Notes: a model not told the origin generated them from the sequence alone. Positions 17,760 to 32,857 are shown, numbered from the stretch's first letter. The stretch: 64,000 nucleotides of DNA from Bacteroidia bacterium (GCA_016788165.1 JAEUTH010000004.1:2522-66521), one strand, 5' to 3'. Program-made: numbers and translations.

Positions 17760-20700
17760 TTATTTTTCACTCATGTGTTCCACACCATCCCAATCGTTAC
17801 CAACACCTTCAACCATAAAACGCGCTGCATTTTGCAAGTACCTTTTTGCCGATTTATCGTCAGGATTTATATCTAACAACTGACGTAATGAAAGCGCTGC
17901 TTCGGCAAAACGTTTATTAAAGTAATCGGTAATGCCACGATTAAAAACATCTAATGTTTGCTGTTTAAGTTGTAACACCTGATCATCATCGGCACTAAAC
18001 ATTTCGAAAACCGACATTACCTCCTGCTTACCTTTTACTTTAATACGACCTAAATAACGGAACTGAAACAATTCTAAATTCCCCAAAGCCTGGTATAGGT
18101 TTTCGCTTAATACCACATTGGCTCCAAATATTTTTGTTAGCCCTTCTAACCTCGAAGCAATGTTTACAGCATCGCTTAATACATTGGCATCGTGCCTTTG
18201 ATTATCACCAATAATACCCATCATTATTGGGCCTTTGTGCAAACCAATGCCCACAGCAATAGGCTGTTGCTGGTTGCTAACACGCTCCTTATTGTACGAT
18301 TCAATTTCCTTTAAAATAGCAACTGCGGCTTGTAATGCGCTTTCGGGTTCGCCCTGAAAGAGTGCAATAAAACCATCTCCAAAATAATGATTTATAAAAC
18401 CGTTGTGGCTTTGTATTACCGGCCCAACACGTTGCAGGTAGGCATTGATAAATGCAAAATTTTCTTCAGTAGTCATGCCTTCGCTCATTGCCGAGTATGC
18501 ACGTATATCGCAAAACATCACAATCATATCGCGTTTAATATGATCGCCCAGTTTTACCTCTAAAATGCTTTGGCGGCCAATAGCATTTATAAAATCGTGG
18601 GGAACAAAACGTTGGTAAGCCTGATTTAATTCAAATTGCTTTTTATATAGTGTTGCATTTTCGATTGAGACGGACATTTGGCTGGTAAGCAATTCTAAAA
18701 TACCCAATCGCTCGCTTGAAAACGCATCGGCATTTGAACGATGTTCAACATAAATAATTCCGTTAGTGGCGCCTTTGTGCGATAAGGGCAGGCACATATA
18801 ACTTGCCGGATTATAAGATTTAAAATATTCGTCACGTTCGAATATTTTAATCGAACTGTTTACAAATGAAAGCACTTGCGTACGTGTTCGAATTACATAA
18901 TTTATTACCGATACGGGTATATTGGTAGCCATATCAATGTCAGCCGATTCCATGGTGTGTATGTCTGCATCTTCAACGTTAAAATCGGCTTCGATGCGCC
19001 ATTTATTATTGTAATTTAAAACCAATACAGCCCTTTGTCCACCGGCATTTTCAATTACGATACGCAAAATTTTTGAAAGCAGTTTCTCATACACAATTTC
19101 TTCGCTTAATGCATGCGAAGCTTTCATAACACTTTTCATATCAAAGCCTGCCAGGTCGGCTGTGTTGATACTGCTGTAAAGCGTACTGAATATATCGGTA
19201 CGTTTTGTTGATACCGTGTTTTTATTTACGAACGGATATTTATTATCAATAGCTTTCGCTAAACGCTGATAGCCTAATTTATCATAAATATATCGGGCAC
19301 GTTCTAAATGGGGTTGTGCATAAATTTTATTACTCATGCTAATCCAAAACGCTCCGGCCTTTTGATGCGCTAATGCTACCTCCCTGTCGAAATCATATAA
19401 CTCGGCCGATTCAATTGCCTTACCATAAAATTCAATTGCTTTTAAAATATCGCCTTTTACGCGCATGTATTCTGCTTCAACTAAAAAGTATTTGTGCTCA
19501 AAATTAGAAGCATTATGTGTACTCCAGTTTTGTAGCTGTTCTTTAAAAGTATTAATGTTGTTCCAGTAGGTTTCAGTTTCACTTTCGGCAGCGCTTTCAA
19601 TCATACCTAAAAGAGTAAGCGCGTAAAGCATATTAAATGTAGCATGCGAAGGTACATTGCCAGCTATTACACCGGGCAACCCTGCAACAACCTGCAAGCA
19701 GTATGAAGCTTCGGCTAAGTTGCCGTATAAATAATACGCTTGCGCTTTGTATAAATGAAATATGGTAGAGCCGTAAGCATCTTTGGCATCTTTGCAATAT
19801 TGCAACAAGGCAGCTCCTGATTTATTGGGTAAATCGAAACTGGTTTCGGCATTGGTTGCACCTGCTAGATTTGACATTACTAATTGCAATGCTTGCAACG
19901 AGTCGTGTGCTAAATCGTGCTTTATTTTTTTAGTAAACTCCAACGCATCGGGTATGCGCAAGAGCAACGTTTGCAGCGATTCGTTACCTTGAAAATAGGA
20001 GTTAAAAAATGGATGAAAACTGGTATAGCCTGCAAAAATAAGTTCGCCACAGTCAATACTAACCTGATAATACTCGGGGTTTAGTTTTGCAGTTTCTGAA
20101 ATGTGTTTAACCCAAGGCGTATTATAATTTGTAAATAAATGGCCTGAACGGCTGAGGTTACGTGGCGATTCCTTTTTAAATTTTTCGGCCAAACGTTTAC
20201 TAAGTGTGGCAGCCGGGTAAGCATATTTGTAATTGCCCATTATAAAAAACAACAGGCCCAATTCAGAAAATGCATAGCCACCTTGCGGTGATAACCCATG
20301 CGTAATGGTTAAGTTTATTTTTAATAACACTTGCAAAATCCACATATTGGTTTCGCCTGTTACATAGGTTGGTGGCGATAGATTATCCAAAATGTTTATG
20401 GTACTTAAAATACCTTGATCTTGTATGGTTTGCTTATCGAAAACCGACTCAACACCATGGGCTTCGAAATAGGAAATTATTTTGCCCATTTCGTCAGGTA
20501 TTAATGCAGGGCAATCGTCTTTTTGCGGAAATGTAAAGTTAAGCAACTGCAACCCTTGCCGTGCCGATTCGATAGCTTCATAGTATTGCGTGCTGTTGTT
20601 TTGATTTTGCATCAGCATAAAATATATGCTGCTTTTTTCGGCTGCTGTTTGTGCACGCTCTATGCAATTTAATAAACTGTTTTGCGATTGCTCTAAATTA

Positions 20701-23081
20701 CCATTCAGGTAATCAATTTCGGCATGGTTGGTAAACAGTTTTAATGCAAAGTCATAATCGCTTTGCCAAATAGCATCGCCTGCTAATTTTTGTGCTGCAT
20801 CAATATATACCGATGCTGATTTGTAGGCACTGCTGTTTTTTGCTTGTATGGCTGCTTGCAAATTAAGCTGCGCCAACTTGTCTTTTTCGGTTTGGATATT
20901 AATTAATGTTATGCCTTCGTTACAATGGTTTACGATATCGAATATAACATCGTCCGTATCGGGATGATTGCTTAAAAGCAACCGTCCTATTTGCAGATGT
21001 ACGGCCGCTTGCCTGGTAGCTGGCATTAATGTAAAACTTGCTTGTTGTATTCTGTCATGTGCAAATTCGAATTTGGCTTGTTGGCTTACCTCAATATGTT
21101 CAATCAGTTTATAATTTTCGTTTAACGGCAATACCAAACCCTCTAACACTGCCGGCCATAAGTCATTAAGTGTATCGGCAGCAGGCTTATCATATAATGT
21201 TGACAACAGATTTATATCAAACAACCCACCAATGCAGCTGGCTAATTGTAATACATGTTGGGTTGGCAAGGGTAGTTCGCTAATTTTTGCAATTAAAAAA
21301 TCAATTACGTTATCGGTAATTTTTCGCTTTTTAATTTCATCAATGTTTACATCCCATAAATTTTTTTCTTGGTTAAACACGATTAAATCGAAATGATAGA
21401 GCGATTTTAAAAACTCTATTGTAAAAAATGCATTACCCTGTGTTTTCGAAAATATTAATTCTGTTAAGCTTAATGTAATTTTATCTTCAGTGTGCAGTAC
21501 ATCTTTTACAAGTTGAAAAATGTGTTCGGCTAATAATGGTTTTAATTGAATTGACTTTACAATTGCTTTATCCTTAATAGCAGCATCAATTGTATGTAAC
21601 AACGGGTGGCCCGGTGTAACTTCGTTATCGCGGTATGCGCCAATTACCATCAGGTGCGGCAAACTTAAATCACATACCATGGTTTTAATAAGATTTAGCG
21701 AACCCACATCGGCCCATTGCAAATCATCAATAAAAAAAACAAATGGATGCTCGGGTTGCGCTATTGCGCGAATAAAATTTACAAATGTTATATTGAAACG
21801 ATTGAGTGCCTCCATAGCATCTAACTTGGGTGCTTCCTCTTGCTCGCCAATAATATCAGCCAAGGCAGGTGCTAATTCAATTAAAATGCTGCCGTTTTCG
21901 CCTACACCTTGTTGAATCAGGTTTTGCCAGTACTGTAGTTTAGCCTTGCTTTCTGTTAGCAACAATCTGCAAAATTCATTTATAGCAAGTGTAAATGCAT
22001 AGTATGGGATATTGCGTTGATACTGGTCAAATTTGCCTTCGGCAAAATGGCCCCTTCGCTCAGTTATGGGCTTATACAACTCGCCAATGAGAACTGATTT
22101 ACCTATGCCTGAGTAACCTGAAACTAAAAACCACTCTGTACTACCTTGACTAACTGCATCAAACGATTTTAGTAAGACATCTATTTCTTTATCGCGGCCA
22201 TAAAGTTTTTGTGGAATTTGAAATTTTCCGGAAACATCGTGCTGGCCAATTTTAAAATCTATATGCGTTTCACCGTTTTCTATTTGACGGATGCAATAGG
22301 CTAAATCGTGCTTCAGACCTACTGCACTTTGATAGCGGTCTTCGGCATTTTTTGCCATCAACTTGATAATAATATTTGAAACAGCAACGGGTATTTTTGC
22401 ATTGACCAGGTGTGCCTGCGGTATTGACTTGGCAAGTTGATAATGTACCAGTTCTAACGAGTCGCTGGCTATAAATGGCAATTGACCGGTTAGCGATTTG
22501 TACATGGTAACACCCAATGAATATAAATCGCTGCGGCTGTCTATTTTACGGTTTACCCTGCCTGTTTGTTCGGGCGACATGTGCGATAGTGTGCCCTTAA
22601 CCCTATCGGGATTTCCTAAATTTGTATTTATTAAATCAATATGTGTGCTAATACCAAAATCAATTAGTACGGGTTGTTGTGTTTGCGAATCCCATAATAT
22701 ATTTCGTCCATTAATATCTTTATGTATAATGCCCTGATTGTGAATTTGCGTTAATATATCGGCTATTGTTACATAAATTTTTAATTGCTCAAGCACTGAA
22801 ATTTGCTGACTTAAAATTTTATTTTCAAGTGTATCGCCTTCAATAAATTCGAACCCAATGGCCAGTTTGTTTTCAAACTTAGTTGTAAACAAGGCTTTTC
22901 GTACGCCTGATATTTTTAAGTCTTTAGTAAAATCGTATTCATTATTAAAACTTAAAATCTGATCGGGGTTTGGTGTAAGCGTACGTAAAACCTTTAATAC
23001 GTGACGGTTACCTTTGCTATCAGTAACATCATAAATGGATGATTCTTCGCTTTCGTATATTATCGTTTGTTTTTCGCTCAT
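17760..23081 (-). CDS. giant multidomain signalling protein: Ser/Thr protein kinase, STAND/AAA-type P-loop NTPase, TPR-like helical region, GAF, class III adenylate/guanylate cyclase
   Basis: 1773 aa. Kinase motifs HKDINGRNILWD, DFGIS and SPEQ. Walker A GYSGIGKS and Walker B FFIDDLQWAD. A long alpha-helical repeat region. A GAF-like segment at about aa 1180-1330. C-terminal cyclase homology domain (MIVMFCDIRAYSAM...GDGFIALF...GIGLHKGPIMMGIIG). Confidence 0.85.
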   Translation of the reverse strand: MSEKQTIIYESEESSIYDVTDSKGNRHVLKVLRTLTPNPDQILSFNNEYDFTKDLKISGVRKALFTTKFENKLAIGFEFIEGDTLENKILSQQISVLEQLKIYVTIADILTQIHNQGIIHKDINGRNILWDSQTQQPVLIDFGISTHIDLINTNLGNPDRVKGTLSHMSPEQTGRVNRKIDSRSDLYSLGVTMYKSLTGQLPFIASDSLELVHYQLAKSIPQAHLVNAKIPVAVSNIIIKLMAKNAEDRYQSAVGLKHDLAYCIRQIENGETHIDFKIGQHDVSGKFQIPQKLYGRDKEIDVLLKSFDAVSQGSTEWFLVSGYSGIGKSVLIGELYKPITERRGHFAEGKFDQYQRNIPYYAFTLAINEFCRLLLTESKAKLQYWQNLIQQGVGENGSILIELAPALADIIGEQEEAPKLDAMEALNRFNITFVNFIRAIAQPEHPFVFFIDDLQWADVGSLNLIKTMVCDLSLPHLMVIGAYRDNEVTPGHPLLHTIDAAIKDKAIVKSIQLKPLLAEHIFQLVKDVLHTEDKITLSLTELIFSKTQGNAFFTIEFLKSLYHFDLIVFNQEKNLWDVNIDEIKKRKITDNVIDFLIAKISELPLPTQHVLQLASCIGGLFDINLLSTLYDKPAADTLNDLWPAVLEGLVLPLNENYKLIEHIEVSQQAKFEFAHDRIQQASFTLMPATRQAAVHLQIGRLLLSNHPDTDDVIFDIVNHCNEGITLINIQTEKDKLAQLNLQAAIQAKNSSAYKSASVYIDAAQKLAGDAIWQSDYDFALKLFTNHAEIDYLNGNLEQSQNSLLNCIERAQTAAEKSSIYFMLMQNQNNSTQYYEAIESARQGLQLLNFTFPQKDDCPALIPDEMGKIISYFEAHGVESVFDKQTIQDQGILSTINILDNLSPPTYVTGETNMWILQVLLKINLTITHGLSPQGGYAFSELGLLFFIMGNYKYAYPAATLSKRLAEKFKKESPRNLSRSGHLFTNYNTPWVKHISETAKLNPEYYQVSIDCGELIFAGYTSFHPFFNSYFQGNESLQTLLLRIPDALEFTKKIKHDLAHDSLQALQLVMSNLAGATNAETSFDLPNKSGAALLQYCKDAKDAYGSTIFHLYKAQAYYLYGNLAEASYCLQVVAGLPGVIAGNVPSHATFNMLYALTLLGMIESAAESETETYWNNINTFKEQLQNWSTHNASNFEHKYFLVEAEYMRVKGDILKAIEFYGKAIESAELYDFDREVALAHQKAGAFWISMSNKIYAQPHLERARYIYDKLGYQRLAKAIDNKYPFVNKNTVSTKRTDIFSTLYSSINTADLAGFDMKSVMKASHALSEEIVYEKLLSKILRIVIENAGGQRAVLVLNYNNKWRIEADFNVEDADIHTMESADIDMATNIPVSVINYVIRTRTQVLSFVNSSIKIFERDEYFKSYNPASYMCLPLSHKGATNGIIYVEHRSNADAFSSERLGILELLTSQMSVSIENATLYKKQFELNQAYQRFVPHDFINAIGRQSILEVKLGDHIKRDMIVMFCDIRAYSAMSEGMTTEENFAFINAYLQRVGPVIQSHNGFINHYFGDGFIALFQGEPESALQAAVAILKEIESYNKERVSNQQQPIAVGIGLHKGPIMMGIIGDNQRHDANVLSDAVNIASRLEGLTKIFGANVVLSENLYQALGNLELFQFRYLGRIKVKGKQEVMSVFEMFSADDDQVLQLKQQTLDVFNRGITDYFNKRFAEAALSLRQLLDINPDDKSAKRYLQNAARFMVEGVGNDWDGVEHMSEK

Positions 23082-23088
23082 GGATTAA

Positions 23089-24498
23089 TTATTTACCACG
23101 TAAAAAAGTGTCGATTACAATTTTAAAAATAGAAGGCCGGCCTTTGGCGCGTAGCGCTTCTAAATCTTTTTTGGCTTCGGCATCACCAAAACCATCGGCA
23201 ATGGTAAAATGCTCAGTACCCCATGTTGCTTGCGAGCTTACTACCTTTACCATAAGCGCATGCATACGTGCAGCAAGTTCGGGGCAATTGGCACGTGATT
23301 TTTGATAACGTATATAGGACCAGGTTGCAAAAACAAAATCAATTAAATTATCAGCAATTACCATCAATATTAAAAAGAACTTGCTCTTTTCCTGCATGGG
23401 TACTTTGTGTACGTTTTCGAAAAAAGTTTCATCAATGTCGCTGTTATATCTGCGTATGATGGCATATACATAACTTATTTTGGGCAAGCCCGAAAACTCT
23501 TTTATAAAACTAACCAACGGTGCCGATAATGCCGGTGCAATTGGGTTTATAAATGGTGTACCATCGGCATTTTTTGGGTAAAACTGTACTTGATATATTT
23601 TTTCCTGCAAAGCTTTGCCTTCGGCATAAGTTGTTGGATTAATTTCATCATGCAAACCTAAGGCGCGTCCGTATAAATGCCAGGTATAATAATAATCGTT
23701 TAATACTTCATCATCCGGCTTTTCGCCCGAACTGATAATGCCGTCTATAACTTCCTGACTAAACGTATTTATGGCAAACAACATATCTTGTTGATTAATT
23801 GGTGCGCCCCATTTTTCCTTTTGCCAAACATTGCTGTTCCAAAAATCTGTGCTTATTTCTACGTCCTCTTTTATACTGATTTTTTTTTCTTCTACAGCCG
23901 ATTTTAAATTTATACGTGCTCTTATCATAGCATGCACCAATCGTAATTTCTGAATACTTTTTATGGCGCTGCCATTGGGCTCAAATGCATTTGGATCCAT
24001 TACATCTAAAACAAAATCCATAGTAGCTAATATGCGCCTGTGTGGGTATTGAGGCAACATACGTGTGCTACCTAAAACCTGTGTACTGTTGTATGCTGCA
24101 TATTGTTTTAGCAATGAGCGTACAGCCAAAATCATGGTACCCTCTATGGCATAATTATTAAAAAAAAAACATGCATTTTTTATCCGTTGTTTTTGCGCAT
24201 CCGTAAAATTAAAATGACTGGTATCGGCAAAATAATTATTCAAAATGGTTACAATGTTTGCATGCTCACCGCTATCCGTGCTTTTTTGCATTCTTTGTGT
24301 TAAATCTGCAAACTTTCTTTCATCAATTGTATCGCTGTTTTTGCTTATAGAAGCTAAAATTTGGTAGGCTTGATGTCCATAAGGAGATGCAACCAAAGCC
24401 AATGCTACTTTATCGGCCTCAGGGTCTTGCATTTGCCTGAATGTTGCAAACCATTTATCGAAATCAGGGTGTGATAATATGGGGGTTGGATTAGTCAT
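23089..24498 (-). CDS. hypothetical protein, possibly an MpaB/DUF2236-like all-helical oxygenase-family protein (tentative)
   Basis: 469 aa. Ends 8 nt upstream of the kinase-cyclase gene on the same strand, so likely co-transcribed. No confident motif beyond H/R-containing helices (KLRLVHAMIRARIN). Confidence 0.4.
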   Translation of the reverse strand: MTNPTPILSHPDFDKWFATFRQMQDPEADKVALALVASPYGHQAYQILASISKNSDTIDERKFADLTQRMQKSTDSGEHANIVTILNNYFADTSHFNFTDAQKQRIKNACFFFNNYAIEGTMILAVRSLLKQYAAYNSTQVLGSTRMLPQYPHRRILATMDFVLDVMDPNAFEPNGSAIKSIQKLRLVHAMIRARINLKSAVEEKKISIKEDVEISTDFWNSNVWQKEKWGAPINQQDMLFAINTFSQEVIDGIISSGEKPDDEVLNDYYYTWHLYGRALGLHDEINPTTYAEGKALQEKIYQVQFYPKNADGTPFINPIAPALSAPLVSFIKEFSGLPKISYVYAIIRRYNSDIDETFFENVHKVPMQEKSKFFLILMVIADNLIDFVFATWSYIRYQKSRANCPELAARMHALMVKVVSSQATWGTEHFTIADGFGDAEAKKDLEALRAKGRPSIFKIVIDTFLRGK

Positions 24499-24616: not shown

Positions 24617-25480
24617 TTAATTGTTTTTAGGTTTAGTGCCGGTATAAAACATATACCGCCATAAGTTTTGTTTATAGGCTTTATACTGATAATAGGTTGA
24701 CCAGGTGTTTGCTGTTTGGGTTCGGTTTCTAAATCCCAGCCATTGGCTTATATAGGTTATGGGTAAGCCCGGAAAAAATGAATAATACAGGCGTTTTATA
24801 CTTTTTATAACCTGTGCTGTTACATCTTTTTGTGTACAATTTACAAATCCACAATTGCTTAGTTTCTTATAAAACTCATCAACATCGGCATATTGTTTTA
24901 TAGCCCAGGTGCTTGTCCATTTTTGCATTAATAGATGTTGCCGGGTGTTGGGCTGTACCTTATAATTAAAAAAATCGGCTACCACCAACTTACCACCGGG
25001 TTTTAAAATACGATAGGCCTCTTTTATAAAATCGGCTTTGTCAAAAGCATAACAAACGCTTTCGATAGCCCACACTACATCAAAAGTATTATCGGCAAAA
25101 TGTGTGTTTAAATAGTTTTGTTTTTCGAAATGTGATAGGTGTGCTACACCGCATTTTATTGCATTACTAAAACAGGTTTGTACTTGCTTATCGCTAAGCG
25201 TAATGCCTGTAGTTTTGCAACCGAAATTTTTTGCTAAAAAAACAGAAGAGCCTCCCACACCGCAACCAGCATCCAACACATGCATATCGGGCATCGGGTT
25301 TACAAGTTTGGCTACTTGTACATTCATGTTATTTAATGCTGCCCTCAGATTTTTGGTGTTGCTATCCCAATAACCATAATGCATACACATGTGTGTATTT
25401 AGGTGCCATACTATTTCATAATCAATTTGACAGTTGTCGTAATAGTTTACAATTTCAACTTCGTTGATTTGTGGCTGCAT
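24617..25480 (-). CDS. class I SAM-dependent methyltransferase
   Basis: Motif I VLDAGCGVGGSSVFLA, motif II/III (ILKPGGKLVV) and a Rossmann fold. 287 aa. Confidence 0.8.
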   Translation of the reverse strand: MQPQINEVEIVNYYDNCQIDYEIVWHLNTHMCMHYGYWDSNTKNLRAALNNMNVQVAKLVNPMPDMHVLDAGCGVGGSSVFLAKNFGCKTTGITLSDKQVQTCFSNAIKCGVAHLSHFEKQNYLNTHFADNTFDVVWAIESVCYAFDKADFIKEAYRILKPGGKLVVADFFNYKVQPNTRQHLLMQKWTSTWAIKQYADVDEFYKKLSNCGFVNCTQKDVTAQVIKSIKRLYYSFFPGLPITYISQWLGFRNRTQTANTWSTYYQYKAYKQNLWRYMFYTGTKPKNN

Positions 25481-25674: not shown

Positions 25675-26307
25675 ATGTTTGTAATTCCCCAACATTGGTT
25701 CAGCGTATCAAAAAAGACTATGGCCCAATTCGCAGAAGCAGAATCGTTTATCAGTAACAAGTTAAAAAACGAACTCTCACCTAAACTTACCTACCACAGT
25801 TATTATCATTCAATTGATGTATTAGAAGCAGCCCTACGTATAGCCGAAAACGAAAATGTTACTGGTGAGCCACTGGCTCTGTTACGTGTAGCTATAATGT
25901 TTCACGACTCAGGCTTTTTACATACTTATAAAGACCATGAAGAATTAGGTTGTGCTTTAGTTCGCAAGCATTTGCCTGACTTTGAATTTACACCGGAGCA
26001 AATTGAGTTGATATGTGGTATGATTATGTCAACAAAAATACCACAACAAGCAAGCAATGTTTTACAGCAAATTATTTGTGATGCTGATTTAGATTATTTA
26101 GGGCGTAATGATTTTTACCCAATTGGTTTAACACTTTTTGAAGAGTGGAAACAGTTTTTAAACATTCAGTCGGAAGAGGAGTGGAATAATATTCAACTAA
26201 GTTTTTTAAGACAACATTTTTACCATACGAACTATTCGCGCGCAAAACGGCAACAATTAAAGCAAACACATTTGGAACAAATTGAAAAGATTGTTGCTGC
26301 TTATTAA
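25675..26307 (+). CDS. HD-domain metal-dependent phosphohydrolase
   Basis: H...HD...D pattern (YHSIDV...IMFHDSGFLH...CDADLDYLGRNDF). No GYP motif. An alternative start lies at 25720. Confidence 0.7.
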   Translation: MFVIPQHWFSVSKKTMAQFAEAESFISNKLKNELSPKLTYHSYYHSIDVLEAALRIAENENVTGEPLALLRVAIMFHDSGFLHTYKDHEELGCALVRKHLPDFEFTPEQIELICGMIMSTKIPQQASNVLQQIICDADLDYLGRNDFYPIGLTLFEEWKQFLNIQSEEEWNNIQLSFLRQHFYHTNYSRAKRQQLKQTHLEQIEKIVAAY

Positions 26308-26308
26308 G

Positions 26309-26752
26309 CTATTTGCTTAACATTTTCTCATTCAGGTTACGCAAGCGTTTACTCAAAATCCGTATAACGCCACGTGCAATTTCGGGTTGTGTATCTAATA
26401 GTTCAAAAAAAGGATCCTGGTCGATACGTAATAAAAAACAGGGTTTAGATGTAGTTGCAGAAGCTGAGCGTGTTTCGGTATCGAGCAGCGATAGCTCGCC
26501 AAAAAATTCTTTATCGTTAAGTACAGCCAGTGTTTGATTGCCTTTATTAATTTGAACTGTACCATGATAAATTATGTACATGCAATTACCGATATCACCT
26601 TCATTAAATATCAATACATTTTCATCCAATTCAATTTCGTGTAGTAAATGCGCAACCTGGGCCAGTATATTTTCAGGTGTATCTGAAAATATACTAATAG
26701 ATTTTAGTAGCAGTACTTTTTCAATCAATAATAAATTTCCGTTTTCCATCAT
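26309..26752 (-). CDS. stand-alone cyclic-nucleotide-binding (cNMP) domain protein
   Basis: 147 aa with a phosphate-binding cassette (FFGELSLLDTETRSASATT) and the beta-roll of CAP-family cNMP-binding domains. No HTH domain. Starts 6 nt after the stop of the upstream TLC-HEAT gene. Confidence 0.85.
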   Translation of the reverse strand: MMENGNLLLIEKVLLLKSISIFSDTPENILAQVAHLLHEIELDENVLIFNEGDIGNCMYIIYHGTVQINKGNQTLAVLNDKEFFGELSLLDTETRSASATTSKPCFLLRIDQDPFFELLDTQPEIARGVIRILSKRLRNLNEKMLSK

Positions 26753-26758
26753 ACGAAT

Positions 26759-29497
26759 TTAATGGGCTATAGCCTGCAACTTATGTACAATTGTTTGTTG
26801 CAGCAATCTATCGGCATGAGTCATTATTTGCTTCAAGCGTAAATTATAGTGTGTTGTTTGATCTTTACTAAGTGTATAAACTGCAACTGCTTTTGTCCAG
26901 CTATTGAATGTATCTTCCGGGGCGTTCAGTATTTGTTTGATTACCGTTTGTGGTTGTAATTGAACGTGAAAATATTTTTGCATTTCGTTAAGTTTAGTTT
27001 CTATGCTAACATTATCAAACAATGCAATAAACTTTTGTGCATGACTTTTATTTAATGTTACATCAATTACCTCCATTGCATTGGCTATTACGTTAGGCTT
27101 ATCAATTACATAAGCATGCTTTACTCGTAATATATTTTCAGTGTTGTAAAAAAATGTAAACATATAAAGCAACTGCGATCGTACATCGTTAAGCTCAATG
27201 GTTAGTGCATTATGTAATAGTTTGTTTTGCTGCATTGCTACCTGCTGTATCTGAGAAATCAACATTGATGCAAATAAAAATTTGTTATCAATTATTTGCA
27301 AAAACTGCTTATCGGTTTGGGCTGATTTGTAACCTAATACGTATAATGAAAAAACGATGTCGTGCAATAATGGTGTTCGTTCATTTGCCAATGTTGTAAG
27401 TACCGGTACACTATAAGTATGGTTAGCTTTTGCAATAACGGCAATTAATTTTTTTTGCGTTGGTAGCGATAGTGTTTTGCTTGAAATAGCCTCGGCAATA
27501 AGTTTTACGGCAGCACCACCTTGCATACTTAAGCTTTTCATAACGGAGGCCGTGTACTTAGTTTGTTCGGATAAGCTAATAAGTTTGTGTACAATTTCGG
27601 CCCGGTGACAAACTCCCGCTGCATTTATAGCTAAAGCTAAAATTTCTTCATCGGTGCTTTGCAAGGCTTCCATAACTTCATTACTAAAATGTGTGTTGCC
27701 CGATTGTTGTACAATAGTTAATGCAGCTATTAAAGATTGCTTACCTTGAGTAAATAAAACATGCAACTGTTTATGTGCCTCATGTTGTAAAAGTTCATTA
27801 CCAAGCATGCCTTTTAAACTTGCAATTTGCCACTGCTGTTCTTTATGCCAGCTGAGTTGGGTTATGTTGTTCCTCGACAAAGCATAAATGGCTGTTATAC
27901 ATCGTTGCTTAAGGGCAATACTTTGGGTTGTTGCTGCAACTTGGCTTATATCAGCCAACAATTCGTGGGCATGCAAACGCTGGCTTAATTTAACCGCTTC
28001 AAACTGAACAGGCATCGCAGTATGATTTAATGCCTGTTTTAAAATTTTATACGTTGATGGCTGTAACTCCTTAATTAAACTTAAAATAACCAATGCATCA
28101 TTTTCGCTGCTTTGCGGCATGCGCTGCGTTAAAAACGATAGGGTTGTTGCATCATTGATGTTGGCGTCCTTATTATTTAAATACCTGTTGTGTACAGCAA
28201 TAATTAAAGCCTTTATGTATGCCTTATCTATTATTAAAATCCAACAAATAGAAAGAAACAACAAAGCTGTTAACAGGTAACATAGCAATTGCAAGTCAAC
28301 AAAATGTTCCAAATCTATCATCAGATATAAAAACACTCCGCAGAAAAAAAATGCAAACGGATCCATAATGCCTTTCAGTATGTTATGCGCCCTAAGGCGT
28401 ACATTTGCTTGCAATGGTTGCATTATTGCTAAAAAAACGGGAGTTTGTATTGCCGACCTTAATACATCGTTTAATATTGACAGAAGCCCAAAAACCAATA
28501 GTACTTTTAAAGTACCTACACCTGACAATTGCATTAAAAATACGGGTATAAACAACAGCGACAATAAAACAGGAGTTATTAGTAATGCCTTTGTAATACC
28601 TAAGTAATTAATAATCCGATTTGTAAAAAACAATTTAACCACAATAGCAACACCCCGGCTAAATGCCAGAAACCAACCAATATATGTAGCCAACATTGCA
28701 TTATTGGTGAGCCTGTTTTTTACTTCGGCATAAAACGTAAAATTAATTACAGTAAAAGTGCTCATTATTAAAAACGATAAAATAGCCATGTGAAAAACAA
28801 GGTTATTTTGGAAAAAGTTTTTTACTATTTGTTTTAAGCTCTCGCCAGGTACCGCTTTGTTGTTCCGGTGTGCATGCGCTACCACTACATTCAGATGGCC
28901 GTACTTGTTAAGCCGGTACCAGTATCGTAGTGATATCAATACTAATATGGCGCCTACTACCAATAAGTTTTGTGCACCTAAAAAAGGAACAATTATAACT
29001 GCCGATGAATAGCCGATAAATTTTGCTGGTATATCGCCTGCACTTATTAAACCAAACAGGCGTTTGCTTTGCCTAACATCAAAAAGCAAGGATGCAAGGC
29101 CCCAAAAATCTAAACTGTTTAAAAGGTATAGTACATTATACCAAACCAACATGGCAAAGTAAAACCAAACACTTCCGGTAAAAGGCAACATGGCCCTGAA
29201 TGCTAAAATGCTTAATGCAATAAATAAATTGATGTAGAGTATTAAATATTTAATTCGAAAGGCATGCTCCAACTTGCTATAAATAAAGCCGGTAATCCAT
29301 AACACAAAAGCCGAAGCTATAAGCACCTTAGGTAATTCGACAATTGAAAACTTTTGCAAAAACCAGCTAAACGCTGCCGTAAAAAACAAAGCAATGCCTG
29401 CGCCCGAAAAAAATTGCTGAAAAAACAATTGTCTTACTAACCACCATTCTGTTTGGCGTACTTGTAAAAGGTTAAGCAGTTTGGTTTTCGAAATCAC
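26759..29497 (-). CDS. TLC-family (Npt1/Npt2 ATP:ADP-antiporter-like) 12-TM transporter domain fused to a C-terminal HEAT/ARM-repeat domain
   Basis: 912 aa. The N-terminal half of about 430 aa is polytopic, with TLC-like motifs (DFWGLASLLF; RQSKRLFGLISAGDIPAKFIGY). Compare Rickettsia Tlc1 ELWG..LLFWQF and [27 protein letters not shown]. The C-terminal half of about 480 aa is all-helical HEAT-like repeats. Confidence 0.7.
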   Translation of the reverse strand: MISKTKLLNLLQVRQTEWWLVRQLFFQQFFSGAGIALFFTAAFSWFLQKFSIVELPKVLIASAFVLWITGFIYSKLEHAFRIKYLILYINLFIALSILAFRAMLPFTGSVWFYFAMLVWYNVLYLLNSLDFWGLASLLFDVRQSKRLFGLISAGDIPAKFIGYSSAVIIVPFLGAQNLLVVGAILVLISLRYWYRLNKYGHLNVVVAHAHRNNKAVPGESLKQIVKNFFQNNLVFHMAILSFLIMSTFTVINFTFYAEVKNRLTNNAMLATYIGWFLAFSRGVAIVVKLFFTNRIINYLGITKALLITPVLLSLLFIPVFLMQLSGVGTLKVLLVFGLLSILNDVLRSAIQTPVFLAIMQPLQANVRLRAHNILKGIMDPFAFFFCGVFLYLMIDLEHFVDLQLLCYLLTALLFLSICWILIIDKAYIKALIIAVHNRYLNNKDANINDATTLSFLTQRMPQSSENDALVILSLIKELQPSTYKILKQALNHTAMPVQFEAVKLSQRLHAHELLADISQVAATTQSIALKQRCITAIYALSRNNITQLSWHKEQQWQIASLKGMLGNELLQHEAHKQLHVLFTQGKQSLIAALTIVQQSGNTHFSNEVMEALQSTDEEILALAINAAGVCHRAEIVHKLISLSEQTKYTASVMKSLSMQGGAAVKLIAEAISSKTLSLPTQKKLIAVIAKANHTYSVPVLTTLANERTPLLHDIVFSLYVLGYKSAQTDKQFLQIIDNKFLFASMLISQIQQVAMQQNKLLHNALTIELNDVRSQLLYMFTFFYNTENILRVKHAYVIDKPNVIANAMEVIDVTLNKSHAQKFIALFDNVSIETKLNEMQKYFHVQLQPQTVIKQILNAPEDTFNSWTKAVAVYTLSKDQTTHYNLRLKQIMTHADRLLQQTIVHKLQAIAH

Positions 29498-29586: not shown

Positions 29587-29623
29587 TAAAAAAAAATGCT
29601 GTTGCTTTTGGCAACAGCATTTT
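29587..29623 (-). terminator. intrinsic terminator downstream of the T9SS protease gene
   Basis: 10-bp stem ATGCTGTTGC / GCAACAGCAT. Preceded on the + strand by A9, which gives a U-tract on the - strand transcript. Confidence 0.7.
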
Positions 29624-29642: not shown

Positions 29643-31409
29643 TTAAATTTTGGTGATTTTTTTGGTGGCCAATTTTTCACCGGTTTTTATTTGCATATAA
29701 TAAACTCCGGTACGTAAATCGCTTAAATCAGCGTCAACACGTAACTTACCAGGTTGCATAAAATTATTACGCAACACCACTTTTTCTAATTGTCCAACAG
29801 CATTGTAAATGTATATTTCTACATCGCTTGCGGCTTCAATACTAAACTCAACTATACATGAGTTTAATACCGGATTAGGCGACACTTTAATATCATCTGT
29901 CATACTATTATGGTCAACTGTATTGCGAACAGCAAGTTCAGCTGTACTGCCACCATTTGCAACAGGAGGAGCCGATGGCCCGATAACAGCCATACCTGAT
30001 GTTGCACGTAGCGTTAATGCCTTGCTGGTGATAACAGTTTCAGTATAACTACCTTCGGCAATATCAACTACGTTACCGGCAGTAACGCCTGTAATACCTG
30101 CATTAACAGTTTTGTAAGGCCTGAAAACCGTGCCGGTTGCTGCAAAGCCGGATGGGTGGTTTTCATCAACAAAAGTTACACCGGTTGTTTTATTTACGAT
30201 ACCGGTTTCTGTATCATCGGCTTCGAAACTGCAACCCTGATTAGCTCCGGGCGATGCTGATGTATTACAACCTGCATTGGTATGTATGCCGCATGAATTG
30301 CGTGTGCCGTTTAATGCAACCGGACTGCCTGAGTTACCGCCTTCGGTATCAACCGTATATTGTAACGATACTCTTACTGCTGATGTATTTACTTCTGTAA
30401 CAAATGGGCCTGTATGTGTTTGTTCCGTTTGGTTTTGTGCATTACGGCCACCCGATGAACCCAGCGGAACCTGATCAACTCCATAACCTGTTATACGCGT
30501 AGTTGCAGGTAAATTATCGTGTGTAACCCTAAAAAACTTATTATCAGTAAAACTATTTTTAGTGTCATACGAATCGAATGCGGTTTTGCCGGTATTAGAA
30601 TTAACACCTACATTAAATACACACCAATCGTCACCAATAGTTACGTTTTGAAATACAATACTTGCATCGTTTACCGGATATTGATCAACAACTGCAGCAG
30701 CTACAGTAGTACCGTTTGATAATGATGCAGGTACATTAAATTCTAAAATATTTAAACTTGCTGGTGCATCACAACAGTGGCCGGCCGATACATAAGTTCC
30801 ATTTGTAATCAACCAACCTGTACAACCTAATGGCATCATACGTCCAATTGCCTGATCACTTAATGCGGTTCGATCATCATTGGGTCCGCATTGCGATTCG
30901 GGCACGGCTTGCACACCATTACTTAAATCATCGGCAACAATAAGTTTGTAAATATGAAAACCAATTTCTTTTTCATTAGGTGCAACGTGCAGTTGTATGG
31001 TTACCATGCCACCATTAAACATGGCGGAATGATTACCCCATTCGGCTAACGATTTTGCCGTAAACATTTGTACATCGCCATCGGCACCGGAAGTTATAGT
31101 GAAATAACTGTTAGTACCCATATTTACTTCATCAAAACGTAATTGAAACCAGGCAGCCGGAGCACCTGTATAAATTGCTTTTGATGTTACTACAAACTGG
31201 CTTTCATCAAATGTTTGAACAAAGCCCGGATCGGGATTAGCTATTTTTAAATCGGGCACATAGTTGCCACTTAGTGGTCCAAGTGTTTCATCAATCATTT
31301 CGATATGATGTGGCACAACATCTTGTGCTTTTACCTGGAGCGTAATTGCCAAACTAAATGCTAACAGCCATGACCCTAATTTTTTAGTGTTGTTCATGGT
31401 TGCTTTCAT
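29643..31409 (-). CDS. T9SS C-terminal-domain-containing trypsin-like (S1) serine peptidase
   Basis: Signal peptide. S1 His motif (TNGTYVSAGHCC) and Ser motif (GGNSGSPV). C-terminal type-A T9SS sorting domain of about 80 aa (KVSPNPVLNSCIVEF...GVYYMQIKT...KITKI). A nested ATG at 31397 is an alternative start. Confidence 0.75.
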   Translation of the reverse strand: MKATMNNTKKLGSWLLAFSLAITLQVKAQDVVPHHIEMIDETLGPLSGNYVPDLKIANPDPGFVQTFDESQFVVTSKAIYTGAPAAWFQLRFDEVNMGTNSYFTITSGADGDVQMFTAKSLAEWGNHSAMFNGGMVTIQLHVAPNEKEIGFHIYKLIVADDLSNGVQAVPESQCGPNDDRTALSDQAIGRMMPLGCTGWLITNGTYVSAGHCCDAPASLNILEFNVPASLSNGTTVAAAVVDQYPVNDASIVFQNVTIGDDWCVFNVGVNSNTGKTAFDSYDTKNSFTDNKFFRVTHDNLPATTRITGYGVDQVPLGSSGGRNAQNQTEQTHTGPFVTEVNTSAVRVSLQYTVDTEGGNSGSPVALNGTRNSCGIHTNAGCNTSASPGANQGCSFEADDTETGIVNKTTGVTFVDENHPSGFAATGTVFRPYKTVNAGITGVTAGNVVDIAEGSYTETVITSKALTLRATSGMAVIGPSAPPVANGGSTAELAVRNTVDHNSMTDDIKVSPNPVLNSCIVEFSIEAASDVEIYIYNAVGQLEKVVLRNNFMQPGKLRVDADLSDLRTGVYYMQIKTGEKLATKKITKI

Positions 31410-32857
31410 TATTTTTTAAGATTATTAATTTGTTGTTGCAATTTTTCGTTTGATGCTTTTAAAGCTTTCAATTCTTCGTTTTGTTTAATTGCATAAAGTG
31501 TTAGCTCTTCAATTTTTTCCATCATGGCTTTACTCATGGCAGCAACATGTAAACCCTCGTTTTCTACTACAGTGGCTTTTTCAATGCCGGGTAAATGTTT
31601 GTTAATCTTTATGAAATCAGATACTTCTTCTAATGATTTTAAACGATAATCATCAGCAAAAACATAATCGCACCAGCCTGTTTCTAAGCGCAACTCAGTG
31701 GCTCTAACGGTACCGCATACCGATAGCTTATAAGTGCCACTTGCGGCAACTCCCATACCTATGTTACCACTGCTTAAACTCATACTCATAAAAAGGTTAT
31801 TAACTGTGGCAAATTCATCGGTACTGCCCCTATACTCAAGTATGCCAAAATTATTTACCAGATTAAAGTCAAACGATCCGGTTCCTACTCGGTTTAACTT
31901 TAACCCAACACTGCCGCCACCAACACCAGATATAGTCATGTTATTACCGCTACCGCTATTTATAAACTGGGTTCCTCCTGCATTATCCAATGTAAAGTTA
32001 GATGCTGTAACTGCTAAATTGCTGGCTACGCCATTATTTAATGCACGTATCGAAACACTATCAGTTGCAATATTACGGCTGCTTGCAGTACCAATAGTAG
32101 CTTGGTCGCGCAACATTAAATTACGCCATCTTGCCCCACTATTTCCTAGATTATTTAATCCATCAGTTACCGACACAAAATCCGAATTACAACCCATAGT
32201 AAATCCACCTTCATCCGTTAAAGTTTCAATTGTGCCTATCCTTATTGCACCTGATACATTTAAATTACCATTTACATTTAACACAGTATCAACTGTGGTT
32301 ACACCACCACTTGCATTAACGTTGCCCAAAACATGTAAGCGCGCTGTGGGTGCATTGGTACCAATACCCACAAAGTTATCAGCAGCATTTATCGAAATAC
32401 TTGCAGCTCCTAATGCAATGTTTCTGATTGCAAAATTATTGGTACCTAAGGTACCCGTTTGCCATGTGGGGCTACCACCGGTACGGTAACTAACCGAAGA
32501 TGTAGCTGCTGCATTACCACGGTCAATGATTAAATTGGCCGTACCGCCTGTTGACTTAAATGAAGCCGAGGCATTGCCTGCCGATTGCACATCTAATAAA
32601 AAGGTGGGCGCTGTTGTTCCAATACCAAGTAAACCGCCATTTGTAAGTGTCATGCGGCTTAAGTTGTTTGTAATAAAGTTAACACCAACGTTGGTGGTAG
32701 TTCCAAAGTTACCGTTGGCTCCTAAGGCATTACCGCCTACCAACCATTGTGCTTGTGCTGTACCGGCAGTACAAAGCAATGCACCTACTGCTAAATGAGT
32801 GATTGTTTTTTTCATTGTTTTTTGGTTTTGTTGTTTATGATAAATTTCAATTTGCAC
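31409..32857 (-). CDS. secreted Gly/Asn/Thr-rich beta-helix-like protein with C-terminal tail-fiber (peptidase S74 intramolecular-chaperone-like) domain and coiled coil
   Basis: Signal peptide (AGTAQAQ). Repetitive G/N/T/S-rich body typical of beta-helical fibre proteins. C-terminal DDYRLKSLEEVSDFIKINKHLPGI... plus a heptad coiled coil. The antisense Pro-rich + ORFs are spurious. Confidence 0.6.
   Translation of the reverse strand: MQIEIYHKQQNQKTMKKTITHLAVGALLCTAGTAQAQWLVGGNALGANGNFGTTTNVGVNFITNNLSRMTLTNGGLLGIGTTAPTFLLDVQSAGNASASFKSTGGTANLIIDRGNAAATSSVSYRTGGSPTWQTGTLGTNNFAIRNIALGAASISINAADNFVGIGTNAPTARLHVLGNVNASGGVTTVDTVLNVNGNLNVSGAIRIGTIETLTDEGGFTMGCNSDFVSVTDGLNNLGNSGARWRNLMLRDQATIGTASSRNIATDSVSIRALNNGVASNLAVTASNFTLDNAGGTQFINSGSGNNMTISGVGGGSVGLKLNRVGTGSFDFNLVNNFGILEYRGSTDEFATVNNLFMSMSLSSGNIGMGVAASGTYKLSVCGTVRATELRLETGWCDYVFADDYRLKSLEEVSDFIKINKHLPGIEKATVVENEGLHVAAMSKAMMEKIEELTLYAIKQNEELKALKASNEKLQQQINNLKK

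Follow-up and report, generated by a model that had tools for sequence, protein, structure and literature searches.

A split NTT-HEAT carrier/cNBD gene pair in Bacteroidia and its conserved HD-hydrolase and cyclase neighborhood

A stretch of 64,000 nucleotides (nt) from a Bacteroidia bacterium (GCA_016788165.1, JAEUTH010000004.1:2522-66521), here called the window and with all coordinates counted from its first letter, carries a two-gene operon of the NTT-HEAT/cNBD family. Its first gene codes for a membrane carrier related to the NTT/TLC translocators and fused to a HEAT-repeat solenoid, and its second gene codes for a stand-alone cyclic-nucleotide-binding domain (cNBD). In relatives the cNBD is always present, split or fused, most loci have an HD-domain hydrolase gene next to the pair, and in a fraction of the loci class III cyclase genes are packed against it. 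We propose that a local cyclic-nucleotide circuit may control this NTT-type carrier, a reading to which we assign a probability of about 0.55. Our confidence in the architecture by itself is very high, while for the inferred regulatory mechanism it is about even.

Major, Embley and Williams (2017, Genome Biol Evol 9:480, PMC5381601) described a monophyletic and widely distributed NTT-HEAT clade that includes Bacteroidetes. They reported cNBD genes "at a distance of several nucleotides" downstream of NTT-HEAT genes as well as three-domain fusions, the HEAT/cNBD boundary being a site where fusion and fission had recurred, speculated that the cNBD could place ATP uptake under cAMP control, and stated that the function was unknown. 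The split and fused architectures were therefore already published in 2017 and the gene pair is a rediscovery, while the conserved HD and cyclase context is new, with no mention of an HD/phosphohydrolase partner or of neighboring cyclase genes in PMC5381601.

The carrier and cNBD genes form a conserved pair

The first-pass annotation of this DNA had described a carrier-HEAT open reading frame (ORF) followed by an ORF of 147 amino acids (aa), with 6 nt from the stop of the former to the double ATG of the latter. Both ORFs were recovered at the positions given, on the minus strand (26759-29497, 912 aa, and 26309-26752, 147 aa), and the distance can be read directly from the junction, ...GCC CAT TAA attcgt ATG ATG GAA. 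A start at the second ATG, as annotated by NCBI (146 aa, P0121), lengthens the spacer to 9 nt. No Shine-Dalgarno-like sequence is visible within the 6-nt spacer, and the close spacing of the two ORFs suggests that they may be translationally coupled.

A scan of species-representative genomes returned 193 relatives, and we analyzed the best 80 of these 193, all from Chitinophagales or other Bacteroidia, including Ferruginibacter, Flavisolibacter, Flavihumibacter, Terrimonas, and Lacibacter. The locus counts given from here on refer to the 79 of these 80 loci that have a full-length large ORF. A cNBD homolog lies directly downstream on the same strand in 76 of the 79, and one of the three exceptions ends at a contig edge. 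The gaps in these 76 loci are mostly between -4 and +20 nt, with a median of about 9 nt, an ATGA-type overlap (-4 nt) in 12 loci, and a gap of 0 to 9 nt in about 30. No fused carrier-cNBD gene was found among the 80 nearest loci. The exact 912-aa protein is present on 20 contigs of independent assemblies, and on every one of them the 147-aa gene follows after 6 nt; a 1,967-bp contig of a second metagenome-assembled genome (MAG) is 100% identical across the junction. Two neighbor proteins also have 100% database matches (P0121 and P0391).

Fused forms were sought with the small ORF among 1.84 billion representative proteins. This search yielded many proteins of 1,045 to 1,120 aa with one C-terminal cNBD (45 to 57% identical) and others of 1,190 to 1,280 aa with two tandem cNBDs (P0248, P0250, P0261, and about 40 more); cNBD duplication had been noted earlier for Bacilli and oomycetes (Major et al. 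2017, PMC5381601). Single chains with the order NTT-HEAT-cNBD include P0281, P0297, P0298, P0306, P0314, P0337, and a Dyadobacter protein (L086, 1,074 aa). Nine of the 10 fused forms checked are collinear with the large ORF, typically from about aa 10 to 902, and then with the small ORF; in P0250, the BLASTP alignment with the large ORF is confined to its membrane half (aa 4-549). The gene break of the window maps to a variable linker before the N-terminal helix of the cNBD (LLxIEKVxxLK), and P0281 keeps the former start Met exactly at the joint. To judge from these alignments, the small protein is a detached version of the cNBD that relatives fuse to the end of the solenoid.

The two alternatives offered in the first-pass annotation, a natural split or a domain that is fused in relatives, turn out to be true together, as the pair is split in 76 of 79 loci and single-polypeptide homologs exist further away, with the junction in the same linker. 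Its caveat that homologs of the large ORF might never co-occur with or fuse to a cyclic-nucleotide-binding domain can be set aside on the same grounds. The place of the window protein in the NTT-HEAT clade follows, we infer, from collinear full-length homology to the fused forms and from the names of close homologs, which are called "ATP:ADP antiporter, AAA family" by JGI. As in the members of that clade, an NTT-like domain is combined with C-terminal HEAT repeats (PF13646/PF02985), and a cNBD (PF00027) is fused or encoded a few nucleotides downstream, in this case 6 nt.

The cNBD protein

The small ORF matches PF00027 (cNMP_binding) over aa 41 to 121 with 66.9 bits against a cut-off of 27.5 (1.6e-18). 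Its phosphate-binding cassette (FGELSLLDTETRSASAT) is intact, with G85, R95, S96, and A97 present in 32 of 32 relatives and E86 found as E in 28 and as D in 4, so that the match above the gathering score and the cassette both bear out the earlier assignment of this ORF as cNMP binding. No helix-turn-helix (HTH) or other output domain was detected in it with Pfam. The 120 best relatives of the small ORF are all stand-alone proteins of 141 to 159 aa with 58 to 81% identity and a mean column identity of 68%, which makes the cNBD protein clearly more conserved than the carrier (34 to 50% identity to family relatives; mean column identity, 43%). Functional coupling between carrier and cNBD is thus backed by adjacency in 76 of 79 loci, fusions within the same linker, the missing output domain, the higher conservation of the cNBD, and the reproduced stop codon, and we consider it probable.

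A perfect 14-bp inverted repeat lies in the 5' part of the cNBD gene (26664-26695), with a minimum free energy of -16.5 to -18.8 kcal/mol, compared with -6.8 +/- 2.4 in shuffled sequences. A role as a regulatory hairpin was considered and rejected, as the structure is not conserved in 68 relatives (mean, -9.5). The repeat is best read as a by-product of AT-rich codons for the conserved peptide IFS..PENI, that is, as self-complementary coding sequence.

The membrane domain and the HEAT solenoid

The large ORF has 564 homologs of about 915 aa with a coverage of 96 to 100%. The word-indexed homolog search missed the identical 912-aa protein (best match, 69% identity), although the collection holds it on 20 contigs. 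When a profile of 42 membrane domains was compared with every Protein Data Bank (PDB) sequence (E <= 10), the sole match was NTT1 of C. pneumoniae (CpNTT1; 9j3n, E = 6.2e-8), aligned over profile positions 118 to 427. The family profile was required for this, as a single-sequence PDB search with the large protein gave NTT1 only at E = 5.8. The full-length family profile also reaches Arabidopsis NTT1 (9j3j, E = 0.014) and no other transporter; its other matches at E <= 0.01 are all HEAT/alphaRep structures, down to 1e-28, and the remainder at E >= 0.08 are non-transporter chains, mostly ribosomal protein L22.

The motifs quoted in the first-pass annotation as TLC hallmarks are present at aa 129 to 163 (LDFWGLASLLFDVRQSKRLFGLISAGDIPAKFIGY) and almost invariant across homologs. 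Residues F131, W132, G133, R142, Q143, K145, R146, G154-K159, G162, and Y163 are invariant in 38 to 42 homologs, and the motif aligns on the NTT signature FWGFAN...EAKRFY of CpNTT1 (profile consensus, nlefWGlaallfdvRqskRLf). Polar or charged residues that are invariant in the membrane domain of the family comprise E17, E77, R142, Q143, K145, R146, D155, K159, R367, H371, and K375. Neither Pfam nor NCBIfam assigned a family to the large protein or to its membrane half, even at E <= 10.

An AlphaFold model of the large protein, built from 38 sequences (mean pLDDT, 82.7), predicts 6+6 membrane helices (aa 15-440), then a short low-confidence linker, and then the solenoid. In a Foldseek search of the PDB, ranks 1 to 5 were taken by all five solved NTT structures (9j3n, 9j3l, 9j3j, 9j3m, and 9j3o) with E values of 9.4e-7 to 3.8e-5, target TM-scores of 0.56 to 0.68, and about 14% identity. 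MelB (1.1e-4), VMAT2, PiPT, and other transporters of the major facilitator superfamily (MFS) came next (E >= 1.1e-4), so the lead of the NTTs is modest.

The region from aa 450 to 911 is modeled as an all-helical solenoid. HEAT_2 matches 38 of 38 family members at E <= 1 (best, 2.7e-23) and HEAT matches 25 of 38, so that model and profile support the C-terminal HEAT/ARM-like solenoid described earlier, with a length of about 460 aa in place of the 480 aa that had been given. The HEAT scores of the window protein itself are below threshold (E, 0.04 to 0.66); its HEAT region has diverged too far for the Pfam HEAT models, unlike that of all its relatives, which match at E <= 1. A cytoplasmic location is predicted for the HEAT arm, since an MFS fold has both of its termini on the cytoplasmic side.

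The HD-domain partner

A 195-aa HD-domain protein is encoded convergently to the pair, with its stop codon 1 nt from that of the cNBD gene. An HD homolog adjoins the module in 62 of the 79 loci, directly upstream in the same operon in 42 (one of them a contig-end case without a cNBD gene), convergent downstream in 11, and at both positions in 9. HD genes also adjoin the fused forms in L082 (43% identity, E = 1e-50), L083, and Dyadobacter L086. In P0096 (1,132 aa, Logan assembly) the HD domain is itself fused N-terminally to NTT-HEAT, with aa 1 to 189 being 45% identical to the window HD protein (E = 5e-53), although this is a single instance and may be an assembly or annotation artifact. Judged from this recurrent gene order, the HD gene next to the cNBD gene is evidently no chance neighbor. 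The distant fused protein P0337 (L084:1035-6443) lacks an HD neighbor and is convergent with a gene for a 738-aa cNMP-binding/NTE P-loop/patatin protein, which, by its predicted domains, is another cyclic-nucleotide-linked partner.

Two loci link the HD protein to cyclases directly. In L088:3008-6588 (JGI metagenome 3300056788), a Reg_prop/Y_Y_Y-cyclase gene directly precedes the HD gene, and NTT-HEAT is missing from the vicinity. In Dyadobacter sp. CY345 (L086:4927-6579), genes for a histidine kinase (HisK), a response regulator (RR), an RR-cyclase, and HD are convergent with the fused carrier. Because HD pairs directly with cyclase genes in both, these loci suggest that the HD protein is by itself a component of cyclic-nucleotide metabolism.

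The only Pfam model that the HD protein matches is PF01966 (HD), and its metal ligands are invariant among homologs. A profile comparison with the PDB gives small uncharacterized HD hydrolases (2pq7, 3b57, 3dto, and 2qgs) as the closest sequences. The structure was predicted from an alignment of database homologs, and its fold matches include three small bacterial HD hydrolases, one of them in first place; otherwise, the best are class I cAMP/cGMP phosphodiesterases (PDEs), the catalytic domains of which align over 176 to 185 of the 195 HD residues. The predicted model has the class I PDE catalytic-core fold with its His/Asp metal ligands, and we regard the protein as PDE-like in fold rather than as a demonstrated member of the class I PDEs.

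Cyclase genes in the neighborhood

A hidden Markov model made from cyclase domains and run on the 79 loci identified 28 class III cyclase ORFs in 22 of them. All are at most 1.4 kb from the module, 23 lie within 500 nt of its edge, and five are the second of a tandem, behind a first cyclase (1.27 to 1.40 kb). Farther out, beyond 1.5 kb, none was found in approximately 670 kb of flanking sequence. The gene order takes at least three forms, namely, cyclase-HD-carrier-cNBD on the same strand and carrier-cNBD with either HD-cyclase or a cyclase in convergent orientation, and this variety argues against simple inherited synteny.

The window has a gene for a 1,773-aa protein with a class III cyclase domain (Table 1). 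This is the cyclase nearest to the module, at 2.6 kb from the HD gene, and a possible local source of cyclic nucleotide, linked to the module here by proximity alone. Relatives of its GAF-cyclase C terminus (E of about 1e-67 to 1e-74) are found directly upstream of HD-carrier-cNBD in L049, L058, and L063.

Proposed mechanism and alternative readings

In the mechanism that we propose, the output-less cNBD protein would dock on the HEAT solenoid, as could be expected because fused relatives exist (a Rosetta-stone argument). Binding of cAMP or cGMP through the intact cassette would then alter the contact between HEAT and cNBD and thereby switch the transport activity of the carrier. The signal would be made by a class III cyclase, adjacent in many relatives and 2.6 kb away here, and would be removed by the neighboring HD protein, with its class-I-PDE-like fold and complete set of metal-binding residues. 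A stronger version is tentative: a self-contained circuit in which an adjacent cyclase writes the signal, the stand-alone cNBD gates an NTT-type nucleotide carrier through HEAT, and the 195-aa HD protein, as an unrecognized minimal relative of class I PDEs, resets it. In a still bolder variant, the cargo of the carrier would be the cyclic nucleotide itself, or its precursor or product.

Several observations weigh against control of the carrier by such a circuit. The loci are related by descent, so that the counts are not independent events, and among them 17 of 79 lack an adjacent HD gene and 57 of 79 lack an adjacent cyclase. The cyclase gene of the window (17760-23081) is itself not adjacent, as two unrelated genes separate it from the HD gene. 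The contact between HEAT and cNBD comes from the gene-fusion argument only. The similarity of HD to PDEs is not significant at the sequence level (PDE5, E = 0.27), and the class I PDE signature HD[LIVMFY]xH (PROSITE PS00126) is absent from the HD protein, which reads HDSGF at this point (F-H-D-S-G-F). The Pfam TLC model, PF03219, misses both the whole large protein and its membrane domain alone, even at E <= 10, and also 38 of 38 relatives at E <= 1, while MFS_1 matches 13 of the 38. Finally, we found no functional report or experiment on any NTT-HEAT family member in the literature using that term, and the earlier remark that the arrangement is not functionally characterized still appears to be true.

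It is possible, if rather unlikely, that the membrane domain is a generic MFS carrier of an unrelated small molecule, or a non-transporting anchor or sensor, with the HEAT arm serving as a scaffold for a signaling complex of cNBD, HD, and cyclase. The Pfam results would agree with this, as would the identity of about 14% to NTTs, the E values of other MFS transporters within about two orders of magnitude in Foldseek, the free-living habit of these soil and water Bacteroidota, which lack a host whose ATP pool they could tap, the typical use of HEAT solenoids as scaffolds, and the fact that the cNBD, not the carrier, is the most conserved component. However, among the MFS transporters of the PDB the family profile detects NTT1 alone, the NTT signature is kept with K145 and R146 invariant, and the invariant charged and polar residues of the membrane domain argue for conserved binding or transport. 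By profile and model, the large protein has an MFS fold and is a divergent relative of the NTTs, neither a canonical TLC protein nor just an MFS one. The TLC assignment of the first-pass annotation is upheld by the NTT-only profile match and the top five Foldseek ranks and fails with the Pfam TLC model and the MFS_1 matches; the simple MFS protein that it had named as the alternative is not borne out. Since Pfam gives no TLC match and places MFS_1 in 13 of 38 relatives, a nucleotide cargo is only a family-level guess, according to which a nucleotide or dinucleotide would be most likely.

A second alternative concerns the HD partner, which might be a nucleotide (pyro)phosphohydrolase of the YpgQ/YedJ type that acts on the cargo of the carrier (e.g., imported nucleoside triphosphates), leaving regulation to the cNBD alone. 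We find this doubtful. The nearest PDB sequences are consistent with it, and so are the missing class I PDE signature, the lack of a match to Pfam PDEase_I, and the presence of HD in the carrier operon in 50 of 79 loci and once in fusion with the carrier. It is at odds with the pairing of HD and cyclase genes, including the carrier-less L088 and the [RR-cyclase][HD] operon of Dyadobacter, and with PDE catalytic domains that cover nearly the whole HD protein.

A reading of the small ORF as an ordinary transcription factor of the CRP/FNR type, tied to the carrier gene by nothing more than its position, is very improbable. Database entries with names like "Crp/Fnr family transcriptional regulator" and a weak NCBIfam match to the N-terminal region of CRP would suggest it, but that match (41.6 bits against a cut-off of 266) covers the cNBD part alone, the 147-aa protein consists only of the cNBD, its adjacency to NTT-HEAT is conserved, and the same domain is fused to NTT-HEAT in relatives. 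With no C-terminal HTH detected, this identity was rejected.

A split that is merely an artifact (frameshift, sequencing error, or recent nonsense mutation) of an originally fused gene, as fused relatives and the Met kept at the junction of P0281 might suggest, is hardly credible, as it is refuted by the many genera and varied spacers of the split loci, by ATGA overlaps that need separate start and stop codons, by 120 best cNBD relatives that all stand alone at about 150 aa with no fusion in the 80 nearest loci, and by a stop and spacer (26753-26761) that are identical in 20 independent assemblies and the second MAG, which excludes a sequencing artifact or recent pseudogenization.

Locus features and other neighbors

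Table 1 Features of the NTT-HEAT/cNBD locus in the window
Feature	Coordinates	Strand	Basis or remark
Large ORF, NTT-like carrier plus HEAT solenoid, 912 aa	26759..29497	-	GTG start; TAA stop at 26759-26761
Membrane domain, aa 1-440, predicted MFS fold of 6+6 transmembrane helices	28178..29497	-	Family profile against PDB; Foldseek
NTT-type signature, aa 129-163, LDFWGLASLLFDVRQSKRLFGLISAGDIPAKFIGY	29009..29113	-	Near-invariant in family; aligned to CpNTT1
HEAT-repeat alpha-solenoid, aa 450-912, about 28 helices	26762..28150	-	AlphaFold model; HEAT_2; profile
Intergenic spacer attcgt, 6 nt, from TAA to ATG ATG	26753..26758	-	Sequence
Stand-alone cNBD gene, 147 aa, no output domain	26309..26752	-	PF00027, 1.6e-18; no HTH
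Phosphate-binding cassette of the cNBD, aa 84-100, FGELSLLDTETRSASAT	26453..26503	-	Conservation in 32 relatives
HD-domain hydrolase gene, 195 aa, convergent; conserved third partner	25720..26307	+	Alternative ORF start at 25675
Ser/Thr kinase/AAA_16 (STAND)/TPR/GAF/class III cyclase gene, 1,773 aa	17760..23081 (cyclase domain, ~18012-18527)	-	Pfam
Terminator-like hairpin, 13-bp stem plus T run	29593..29623	-	Consensus scan (pattern match)

The hairpin at 29593-29623, which is a pattern match only, sits between the preceding gene and the large ORF and probably marks the 5' boundary of a two-gene transcription unit, so that the two genes would have a transcription unit of their own. A sigma-70 promoter scan of the region gave 20 sites, compared with 18 +/- 4 in shuffled sequences, which is no excess; this result is uninformative, as Bacteroidota promoters differ.

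The two genes between cyclase and HD code for a methyltransferase (24617-25480) and an MpaB/Lcp-like protein (23089-24498). No homolog of either was found near the module among the matches listed (six nearest per locus, 80 loci), and both were therefore treated as unrelated neighbors. The genes upstream of the pair, at 29643-31409 and 31409-32857 on the minus strand, code for secreted proteins that are not conserved with the module, and in the 588-aa one of them precomputed Pfam data show a sorting domain for type IX secretion (Por_Secre_tail).

Significance

NTT carriers are mainly known for "energy parasitism," as transporters in Chlamydia, Rickettsia, microsporidia, and plastids. In free-living bacteria, their large NTT-HEAT branch has been without an assigned function since its description in 2017, and the window adds one member to it. 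A cNBD that is always present in split or fused form, an HD protein in most loci, and closely packed cyclases turn this orphan architecture into a testable cyclic-nucleotide circuit. If the proposal is right, these carriers would be nucleotide transporters controlled by a second messenger, with the HD protein as a minimal counterpart, in bacteria, of the eukaryotic class I PDEs. Cultured hosts exist in Dyadobacter sp. CY345, Flavihumibacter, Terrimonas pollutisoli, and Ferruginibacter paludis.

Comparison with known systems

The canonical NTT/TLC translocators (PF03219, TCDB 2.A.12) share with the large protein a 12-helix MFS-type fold and the FWG...KR(F/L) signature with its KR pair. In contrast, the HEAT extension of 460 aa and the cNBD partner are found only on the window side, and canonical NTTs belong to obligate intracellular bacteria or plastids, whereas the window family is from free-living Bacteroidota.

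The HD protein has two comparison systems, the class I PDEs (PDE1-11), with a catalytic domain of about 320 aa in contrast to its 195 aa, and the small bacterial HD hydrolases such as 2pq7, YpgQ, and YedJ.

The CNG/HCN-type channels and their bacterial relatives are similar in combining a membrane transport protein with a canonical cNBD that has an intact cassette. There, however, the transport protein is a channel and the cytoplasmic cNBD is attached through a C-linker, whereas here it is an MFS/NTT carrier, and the cNBD is a separate polypeptide, presumably recruited by HEAT. By analogy, the pairing of a cNBD with a membrane transport protein suggests ligand-controlled transport. The closest counterparts are the NTT-HEAT/cNBD proteins of Major et al. 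(2017), which have the same three modules in the same order and with which the window pair agrees in every respect tested.

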